DNA of 63,367 nt, filler included, from Kipferlia bialata (Eukaryota), in NCBI GenBank assembly GCA_003568945.1. It is 6 parts of 6 records of this genome, joined end to end, with 100 filler letters (N's around TTAATTAATTAA, not from the genome) between each part and the next. Parts side by side here need not be neighbours in the genome. Positions count along the whole stretch, not along the records: positions 1 to 12,278 come from BDIP01001106.1; 5 more parts are not named here. One strand, written 5' to 3'. Each line of letters begins with the position of its first letter. Within the stretch, counting starts at the first letter, position 1. The notes under the pieces were generated by a model. That model ran no database searches and had not been told where the DNA came from. It was given only the letters and a program-made list of their open reading frames with translations. This document shows positions 5,615 through 8,062 of this stretch, in pieces. Both the position numbers and the translations under genes were made by a program.

Positions 5615-8062
5615 ATGAGTGAAACGCCCGTGACAGCCACCCCAGTGGGAGTGGCCCCTGCCGCAGTGGCAGAGGAAGGGGAGGGGGAGACACAGGAGAT
5701 CAAGGCGCTGAAGGGCCAGCACGAGGAACTCGTCGCGTCTTTCCAGCGGTATCAGTCTGCGCTCAAGGAGTACGTACGCAGTGTGATCTCAATGGAGTTG
5801 GCATGTCTATATATATACCACCGAGTGTTGGCCAATACACCGCCTTTATCCATCTCTAGTAGGGTTCATGTGATACATGGTTTCCATACCGTTGTATTTG
5901 GCACCCTGGCTGCTCTCTCTCCCCTATATCCCCCCTCACTCTAGGCTGCAGTCCACCCGTGCCTCTTTACAGTCAGAGATCAAGGCCTTCAAGGGTGGCC
6001 TCGGGGCCCTCCCCTCTGCCGACCAGGCCCACCCATGTGTCGAGGCATGCCGGTCAGACATGACATCCATGCAGTACTTCCTGCCAAGGTGTGTTCAGGC
6101 TGTATCCATATCGTGTCTGTTACTCTTACCTTATCCATATATACACTCCTCTCACCCCCTAGGGCAGGCTCCCGTCTCTTCAGACTCATCTTTGGATCTA
6201 TGAATGTCCGCTTTGTGCAACTCAGTGAGAGGATAGCCTACAAGCAGGTATACCATCTACGTACATATGTATTGATATCCCGCGCTTCCCCAGTCATATC
6301 ACAGATGATTATCATACATATGATAGCCTACAAGCAGGTGTGTGTCACATATATACGTACATACAAGTGTTGTCGTGTACATATCGATCTTCCCGCGCTT
6401 CCCCGCGTTCCCACTCATATTGATTGATATTGATATTGGTATATATGCTGATTCTCACCCCAGGAGTTTGAGCGGTACAAGGCCCGCTTTGGGCTTGTCC
6501 TCCTTGTGCTCCTCCCTCTCTCCCTCCTACTTGCCAACCCCCACCTGGACCAGGCCTTTGGCATCATGAGCGTCATGTACTACTCAATCATAGTGCTCAG
6601 GGAGAGCGTGCTCAAGGTGTGTATATATATATATGTATTGAGTATTGAGTATTCTTTCATTTCTGTCCTCTTGATCCCTTGTCTCACGCCCCTTGTCTCA
6701 CCCTCCAGGTCAATGGTTCCCGCATCAACCTGTGGTGGACTGCCCACCACATCCTGACAGTGGCCATATCACAGACATCAGGTACTGTCTAAGTATCTCC
6801 TACATAGCTCTATCATAGCCTAATAGTGGCCATATCACAGACATCAGGTACATGCACTATGTATGTGGGCGTATATTCAATATAGCTTGTAGCAGTCCAT
6901 ATACCCCTGACCCCCTAGGTGTTGCCATGCGCAACCCTGCCTTCCGGTCCAGATTCAGGGTGCTCACACTCAGCCTGGGCATGCTGGTGTTTGGGTTCCA
7001 GCAGGTAGGGTGCTATGTACAATGTATATGTCAATGTTTCATTGATTTCCTCTGTCTGTCTCTACCTCTCCAACCCCCAGGTGCAGACCAAGTACCAGCT
7101 GAGGCGTCTGCGTCTCATGACAGCACTGGCTAAGACTGAGGTACTATATATACATGCCACTTATATATATATACTTATATGTATATGTATACTTATATAT
7201 ATGTATACTTATATATATACTTGTATATATGTATACNNNNNNNNNNNNNNNNNNNNNNNNNNNNNNTATATATACTTGTATATATGTATACTTATATATA
7301 TGTATACTTATATATATACTTATATGTTCTCATGACGGCACTGGCCAAGACAGAGGTACAATTAGTATATATACATGCCACATATATATATTCTTATATG
7401 TATACTTATATATACATATATATATGTGTATACATATATATATGTGTATACTCATATGTTCTCATGACAGCTCTGGCCAAGACAGAGGTACGGGTGGTGT
7501 AAGTCTCTATACACACAGATATATACATACATGTATATACCTATAGCGGTCCCTTACCCCCAGGTCATGTCTGTCACCAGTCACGAGACAGTGTCATTCA
7601 GACCAGACCTAATGGCTAGGTACACAGTATTCACCCATACACACTGCACGCTCGTGTATTCATGTATGTATATGTAGCAGTCCCCCCCTCACCCTCCTGG
7701 TTCTCCTGCCCATTCTGTTCATCAACGTGTATTCACTACATACTCATGTATATACGGGTGTCTATATATATACATTTGTTACAACCCACTCCTCACCCCC
7801 AGGTTCCTCCTCCTCCCCATCCTGTTCATCAACGTGTATTCACTGCATACTCATCCATATCTATCTATCTGTCTATCTATATACTTATATATATCAATCC
7901 TCCCACCTCCAGGTTCCTCCTCCTGCCCATTCTGTTCATCAACGTGTACCAGATGTGGGTCGGTTACAGTATGGCGGCATACGGCCTCACCTCACCCTGG
8001 GACAGAGACACCCTCTGCATGGTGGCATCTGGGGCAGGGTTCAGCATCATGGCCATCGGTAC

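Follow-up and report, generated by a model that had tools for sequence, protein, structure and literature searches.

In Kipferlia bialata, introns of the TMEM120 gene hold short copies of the neighbouring exon edges, splice site included, which we call echoes. Several of them differ from the working exon at silent sites only, which raises the question of how intronic sequence could have come by a coding-like pattern of change. We addressed it in a window of 63,367 nt, made up of six Kipferlia bialata contigs joined by N spacers, and every count below refers to this window alone.

Exon-edge copies in the TMEM120 gene

The TMEM120 (TMPIT-like) gene occupies 5615..8238 on the plus strand. Its open-reading-frame model has 10 exons (5615-5769, 5945-6088, 6163-6247, 6464-6616, 6709-6781, 6919-7004, 7081-7140, 7564-7619, 7913-8058 and 8129-8238) and encodes 355 aa, identical to the public protein P0001 (TMPIT-like protein, Kipferlia bialata), which carries PF07851. 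Exons 4 and 5 match PF07851 at consecutive profile positions (120-171 and 172-194), as fragments below the curated cut-off. A minus-strand gene at 4690-5400, whose product looks like a prefoldin-like coiled coil, lies head-to-head with TMEM120 at a distance of ~200-500 nt.

The working 3' edge of exon 7 lies at 7113..7140, with its donor GT at 7141. Intron 7 contains an inner donor echo (7328..7357) and an outer one (7460..7489), both on the plus strand and each comprising 28 exon nucleotides (7328-7355 and 7460-7487) and a GT. The earlier note had these copies differing silently only from the exon, and they do: the inner copy shows ACA>ACG, GCT>GCC and ACT>ACA, and the outer copy GCA>GCT, GCT>GCC and ACT>ACA. 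Two of the three changes in each are common to both, giving four distinct silent changes rather than six. The copies have an identical distal breakpoint in exon 7 and similar TA-rich sequence before each, and the inner one is followed by sequence like the start of intron 7. A 30-N assembly gap (7237..7266) separates the working donor from the first echo. Two further plus-strand donor echoes are identical to their exons: 16 nt of the exon 3 end plus GT at 6322..6339, and 23 nt of the exon 5 end plus GT at 6825..6849, the latter with an unrelated intron side.

Between exon 8 (7564..7619) and working exon 9 (7913..8058) lie two acceptor echoes on the plus strand. The inner one (7792..7838) has an intact branch motif and AG (7801-7802) and 36 exon nucleotides from 7803, 110 nt upstream of the working site, as had been pointed out. 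Three silent changes had been read in it; CTG>CTC and ATT>ATC stand, whereas TAC>TAT sits on a breakpoint common to this echo and the one at 7698 and is uninformative, leaving two silent differences. Scored with the window's own matrix, this acceptor exceeds the real one of exon 9 (13.6 vs 7.7). The outer echo (7693..7731) has the AG>TG change (7698-7699) and the 4-nt deletion that the earlier note ascribed to it; its exon part (7700-7731) otherwise equals the start of working exon 9. That note had ranked the TMEM120 echoes as successive stages, an ordering that this locus does not show, as the decayed copy agrees with the working exon at all aligned positions and has no silent differences.

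One 676-nt contig from the DNA run X1, which is possibly the source of the assembly's reads, runs across 7544-8062, includes both acceptor echoes and is free of differences and gaps. In run X2, guessed to be RNA although no run is recorded as such, one contig covers exon 8 and skips 293 nt (GT..AG) to the working acceptor at 7913; its loose upstream end carries the working version of the exon 7 end. Three intact decoy sites were bypassed at TMEM120 in this one contig of the run presumed to be RNA. No X1 or X2 contig at TMEM120 used the acceptor at 7803, although contigs lose rare isoforms. Its use would shift the frame, as had been predicted, and lead to a stop at 8189-8191. Because that stop falls inside the last exon, the isoform is unlikely to be a classical target of nonsense-mediated decay (NMD), contrary to the NMD-sensitive form proposed for this acceptor, and we rejected an NMD-coupled poison isoform on the same count, since such a form would have to stop ahead of the final exon junction. 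Positions 7803-7835 with the GT at 7836 could form an in-frame micro-exon of 33 nt that would duplicate 11 residues and leave a second intron of 77 nt; it is absent from the X2 contig.

Extent and arrangement of the copies

We fixed 20 gene chains with 116 introns by hand, taking frames from reading-frame continuity and codon scores, independently of the echoes. The set does not extend to the gene at ~17300-19100 or the exons at ~60436-60817, and it omits incomplete genes at the ends of contigs as well as the final introns in several genes. Acceptors in the window, as read in this intron-rich eukaryote, consist of a branch motif fused to a C-rich tract and AG. At 55444-55445 on the minus strand, the best-scoring chain requires a GC donor; taking a GT 4 nt on instead would give the two following exons a frame that scores lower. 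Each exon edge was aligned to its own intron with low-complexity sequence masked, and comparisons between exon edges and introns of different genes served as the null. The score cut-off was passed by 4 of 1856 such cross-gene comparisons, which corresponds to 0.5 copies expected by chance.

The scan found 104 exon-edge copies in 59 of the 116 modelled introns; echoes exceed chance and extend beyond TMEM120. The junction is reached by 98 of them, which form our main set; the other six were set aside (dN/dS is 0.181 with them included). In the anchored set, the exon part measures 12-71 nt (median 28), and GT or AG is kept in 86 copies. Echoes are present in 58 of the 69 modelled introns longer than 150 nt, and echo-free introns have a median of 89 nt, which makes echoing the main visible source of intron length in the window. 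Per echo unit, the spacer measures 75 nt at the median and 39 nt at the least.

Echo-bearing introns number 8/27, 0/18, 13/20, 18/23, 17/25 and 3/3 on the six contigs in order. The contig at 12379-24650, with no echo in 18 modelled introns, has long exons and short introns, unlike the others; it includes a 12-exon minus-strand gene (19276-23141) whose translation is rich in PGPGxY repeats, which to us resemble, presumably, those of sperm-tail/ODF3-type proteins. Genes with short exons carry more echoes (rho -0.61, p 0.004, 20 chains), and the relation of echo load to GC4 per gene was not significant (rho -0.33, p 0.16). Elsewhere in the window, the minus strand holds a ~410-codon open reading frame at 40291-41531, apparently without introns among intron-rich genes; an exon at 2094-2769 with two CxxCxxC motifs, which we assume to be ferredoxin-like, and a low-complexity charged insert between them; and, at 59-1694, a frame starting MGIRGF that we take to be an XPG/FEN-type nuclease, with two acceptor echoes in its third intron. 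XPG is reported as absent in fornicates (PMC8516963).

In 13 of 23 pairs of adjacent copies, the two ends lie within 4 nt of each other, as for 7328/7460 and 7700/7803, and up to four or five mutually different versions occur at one junction. Exon-edge alignment placed an array at 32405..32759 (minus strand), where the exon that ends at 32759 has three donor echoes; in one of these the distal ~41 nt are unchanged and silent sites beside the junction approach saturation, with A>S, I>L and A>V replacements. Four copies of 55-63 nt accompany the exon end at 56434 (55801..56496, minus strand), three of them anchored, with 4, 6 and 4 changes, all silent. The same alignment gave a plus-strand donor echo at 62598..62653 with seven silent and three conservative changes (I>V, V>A and Y>F).

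Where an intron has both kinds, donor echoes lie before acceptor echoes (17 of 17 introns), and therefore no pseudo-exon arises. By the window's own matrix, the real site is equalled or outscored by 23 of the 38 intact acceptor echoes and by 18 of the 48 intact donor echoes; a choice of the shortest exon was seen at TMEM120, the one locus with a probable transcript contig. We rejected duplicated or mutually exclusive exons, as the copies are for the most part not flanked by both an acceptor and a donor and none is in the X2 contig at TMEM120. Recursive splicing and twin introns were rejected as well, there being no enrichment, where echoes occur, of the AG ends (35/42 vs 56/74, p 0.48) or GT starts (5/33 vs 14/83, p 1.0) that would regenerate a site at the junction.

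Divergence of the copies from the working exons

As the null for a copy born identical, we allowed silent changes in the working exon too, which gives a replacement share of ~0.58; pure neutrality would be the wrong null because the working exon itself also acquires silent changes. The 98 anchored copies differed from their working exons by 165.5 silent and 94.5 replacement differences (pS 0.215, pN 0.044, dN/dS 0.18). The replacement share was 0.363 against 0.581 under the null (p 7.7e-13), and the silent share 64% against an expected 42%, so the larger sample to which the earlier note had pointed does contain a synonymous excess. The deficit of replacements persisted when only the nearest copy per junction was kept (n = 75, p 3.7e-9), and 167 of 260 differences were silent where 102-123 ± 8 were expected at transition ratios of 1-8. 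Shifting the frames by 1 or 2 lowered the silent counts to 26 and 44 and abolished the signal. pN/pS was below 0.5 in 13 of the 14 echo-bearing chains, the remaining chain being without a silent change. Replacements were conservative (mean BLOSUM62 +0.16 vs -0.45, p 1e-4). Adjacent echoes differed from one another at 46 silent-differing versus 22 residue-differing codons of 207. Frame was kept in 4 of 9 echo indels, which is not distinguishable from chance.

The description 'silent-only' fits 32 of the 98 copies; 18 are identical to the exon and 48 carry replacements. pS ranged from 0 to 0.67, and pN stayed nearly independent of it (Spearman 0.13, p 0.2), at 0.034-0.042 in the three pS classes up to 0.4, with 0.073 in the class above them. 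Subtracting 2 x pN (0.044) from pS (0.215) leaves ~59% of the silent divergence beyond a clock. In aggregate, these values uphold the proposal that echoes are born already diverged at silent sites and later decay neutrally. That proposal does not extend to the 12 copies with a changed splice dinucleotide, which have 7 silent and 11 replacement differences (dN/dS 0.56) and fit the born-identical null, in a small sample with possible ascertainment bias. The contrast with the other copies (158/84) has p 0.04, or p 0.11 when GC donors are counted as intact. Over all echoes, splice dinucleotides were changed more often than replacement sites (16/196 vs 94/2136, p 0.03).

Position within an array also mattered. 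Inner copies were more silent-biased than outer and single copies (60.5 silent/16.5 replacement vs 105/78, p 0.001), and pS was higher in copies nearer the working edge than in the outermost. Inner copies had a pN of 0.028 and broken sites in 1 of 23, compared with 0.051 and 5 of 20 for the outermost (p 0.06 for pN). Throughout the window, silent differences were polarised, with A or T in the working exon and G or C in the echo at 76 sites and the opposite at 51 (p 0.03).

Third-position differences were clustered in tracts: in 25 copies the change-point statistic was 86.5, against 44.7 ± 5.6 in permutations (0 of 2000 reached it). Several donor copies are near-saturated beside the junction and identical farther out. 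The excess of differences near the junction is clear in donor copies and reversed in acceptor copies. On the intron side, similarity to the working intron is weak for ~12 nt and then at background; four of the 51 donor echoes and four of the 43 acceptor echoes had flanks above the 95th percentile of the null, and a duplicated flank is visible in some arrays only. Copies identical in their exon part likewise have differing intron flanks. No dinucleotide was preferred at the breakpoints, where a non-homologous joint might have left microhomology or filler.

Origin of the copies and comparison with known systems

The reading towards which we lean, at slightly better than even, is that echoes are untranslated exon edges and splice sites that once worked, alleles retired when recombination with a strongly diverged allele displaced them into the intron. 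The silent excess, the tracts and the flanks indicate that each copy most probably diverged while it was still working sequence, on another chromosome. Under this proposal, lineages would differ at no less than 20% of silent sites near introns, with introns unalignable, and short exons would be the sole homology. A break in an exon would be repaired by invading the other allele, copying the exon edge, the splice site and most of the intron. The far end could not anneal and would be joined without homology; the incoming edge would become the working one, and the resident edge would be pushed into the intron, at a distance of roughly one intron. Inner copies with the same breakpoint would then arise by unequal exchange of an echo with the working edge of another allele, and the retired copy would decay neutrally, at ~4% of replacement sites. 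Carriers would be tolerated if the spliceosome picks the pair of sites that gives the shortest exon, that is, by exon definition. The divergence between copies is coding-like and the tracts are mosaic with a sharp switch, as expected of such a recombination scar, and the median spacer of 75 nt next to the 89 nt of an echo-free intron also counts in its favour.

Other findings count against an allele as the donor. The near-saturated silent tracts call for divergence well beyond what is usual within a species, a symmetric swap of alleles would not predict the AT-to-GC polarity (76 vs 51), and the broken-site copies have fewer silent differences, as would be seen if intact copies were under indirect selection or if detection were biased. 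At 85% likeness, neither X1 nor X2 gave a second version of 7450-8062, and the protein cluster of P0001 has one member only. A metagenome scan for TMEM120 gave 54 pattern matches, none confirmed, and in a scan with a kinase exon the best 80 of 117 loci had 29-58% identity, with no close relative among them. The broken-site pattern, the AT polarity, the reversed acceptor excess and the missing donor allele therefore keep three rivals alive, namely selection on latent templates, a homeologous donor and mutagenic duplication.

Ordinary tandem duplication across the junction, in which copies are born identical, the exon gains silent changes only and the echo decays everywhere, would account for the 18 identical copies, the 12 broken-site copies and the 7698 copy, and arrays with common breakpoints do show duplication of units. 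It predicts a replacement share of 0.58 rather than 0.36, intron flanks ~90% identical rather than near background, and neither mosaic tracts nor a pN independent of pS. Decay of 4% in the exon part and an unalignable flank are not both within the reach of plain tandem duplication, which we reject as a general explanation and to which we give a slim chance overall; it may explain a minority of copies. Born-identical echoes might instead be under indirect purifying selection as latent templates, returned to the working position by loop-out or single-strand annealing. Intact-site copies being the most coding-like and broken-site copies looking neutral agree with this, as do identical distal blocks usable as annealing sites and the absence of NHEJ in metamonads, as given in the accessible text of PMC8516963. 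However, it requires frequent exchange between repeats of 12-71 nt mismatched by up to ~25%, it sits poorly with splice dinucleotides changing more than replacement sites, and it leaves the unrelated flanks unexplained; we regard it as unlikely, if the least so of these rivals. Mutagenic duplication, in which error-prone synthesis rewrites the working edge and adds new TA/CT filler and only events with silent errors survive selection, covers the unrelated spacers, the junction-proximal tracts in donor copies and the AT-ward working edges without extreme diversity. With 7-10 silent and three conservative changes in ~50 nt, though, the error rates would let almost no such event survive, and conservative replacements indicate long selection, making this account quite improbable.

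The donor may instead have been a paralogue or a homeologue from a past hybrid or whole-genome duplication, later lost or unassembled, rather than a population allele. Saturated silent tracts with conservative replacements do resemble divergence at the level of orthologues or paralogues, but four or five differing versions per junction with little decay demand several co-existing donors, and we found no second TMEM120 protein (weak evidence) and no second transcript or DNA contig in X1 or X2. A paralogue search with the exon ending at 32759 gave 14 candidates, none of which scored, and is uninformative, having missed the gene itself too. We place this donor almost level with the latent templates, a shade lower. 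Concatenation of haplotypes from a mixed or heterozygous culture at microsatellite-rich introns would be an assembly artefact; N gaps lie within two arrays (7237-7266 and 56011-56136), where copy number may be wrong, X1 is perhaps the source of the reads and so not independent, and the donor echoes at 7328 and 7460 have no contig cover (7450-7543 is uncovered). Yet the 676-nt X1 contig carries both acceptor echoes without a difference, 0.97 of sampled words of 7270-12270 are present in X1, normal alleles cannot yield junctions from mid-exon to intron, and a second allele is absent from both runs, so that we consider an artefact very improbable. We give equally little credence to echoes being translated as alternative micro-exons or splice sites, which would impose constraint on codons. 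GT or AG being kept in 86 of 98 copies and the potential micro-exon at 7803-7835 speak for it; against it, a branch motif and AG lie just upstream of 1 in 54 donor echoes, 9 of 44 acceptor echoes end near GTR, an open in-frame product results from one of the 48 donor sites and four of the 38 acceptor sites, offsets show no bias towards multiples of 3, and the X2 contig employs working sites only.

Returning to displaced alleles, we can extend the proposal to the genome, tentatively and at somewhat below an even chance: Kipferlia introns may be a layered archive of such alleles, left by a network of deeply diverged lineages exchanging DNA through short exon cores, from which most intron length beyond ~150 nt would come. 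If so, one genome of a free-living fornicate would bear witness to sex or parasex, to extreme diversity and to splicing by exon definition. Sex in fornicates is an open question, and if the copies are retired alleles, a single assembly offers population-genetic evidence of recombination among strongly diverged fornicate lineages.

Among known systems, the closest in form is internal gene duplication, or junction-spanning tandem duplication, reportedly described by Gao and Lynch in 2009. It too is a short local duplicate of an exon edge with its splice site, one copy of which is intronic, and the echoes are likewise partial exon copies in direct orientation with a splice site in the adjacent intron. 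Such duplicates start identical and include matching intron; the echoes, by contrast, have unalignable flanks and a dN/dS of 0.18, and occur in half of the introns. They differ from plain junction-spanning duplication because neither the born-identical null nor matching flanks describe them. A second likeness is to recombination with one homologous and one non-homologous junction, which leaves a partial duplicate beside incoming sequence. One-sided invasion, homologous recombination ended by non-homologous joining, is said to have been set out by Belmaaza and Chartrand in 1994, and homology-facilitated illegitimate recombination occurs in bacteria. MMBIR, with template switching, is described in the available portion of PMC4888836. 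What is known of these pathways comes from reporter assays, from rearrangements in disease and from bacterial transformation, whereas the echoes would be a recurrent natural scar at most long introns, for which such a pathway is presumed.

In the hypervariable Schizophyllum commune, crossovers favour conserved exons in a cross of genomes 14% apart (PMC4209137), much as the Kipferlia proposal would have recombination of strongly diverged genomes fall in conserved exons. What the text of that paper available to us describes is crossovers, not retained exon-edge duplicates, and some Kipferlia tracts look more diverged. According to the accessible parts of PMC8516963, metamonads are without Ku-dependent NHEJ and rely on HR and a-EJ, the latter complete in some and partial in others. 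A Kipferlia bialata genome paper gives 124,912 introns, and the strings 'duplicat', 'heterozyg', 'ploid' and 'meio' are absent from its main text (PMC5874029). We found no description of exon-edge echoes of this sort in the open-access literature, with most subscription papers outside that scope. Junction-spanning duplications are already known, and the window-wide diverged echoes are a real variant, apparently undescribed so far.

The echoes also mislead gene prediction, as Viterbi runs on the window repeatedly scored them as exons. For introns of ~90 nt, intron definition is the usual expectation. Under exon definition, site choice follows the length of the exon and not of the intron, as the consulted text of PMC3488318 has it. 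The skipped strong decoys, the short-exon bias and the donor-before-acceptor order in Kipferlia fit that rule, which is suggested here by one transcript contig and by sequence statistics in a protist with basic introns of ~90 nt. Decoy splice sites occur naturally at ~100 per 63 kb, and many of them match the real sites in strength, so that RNA-seq could distinguish directly between exon and intron definition in a deep-branching eukaryote.
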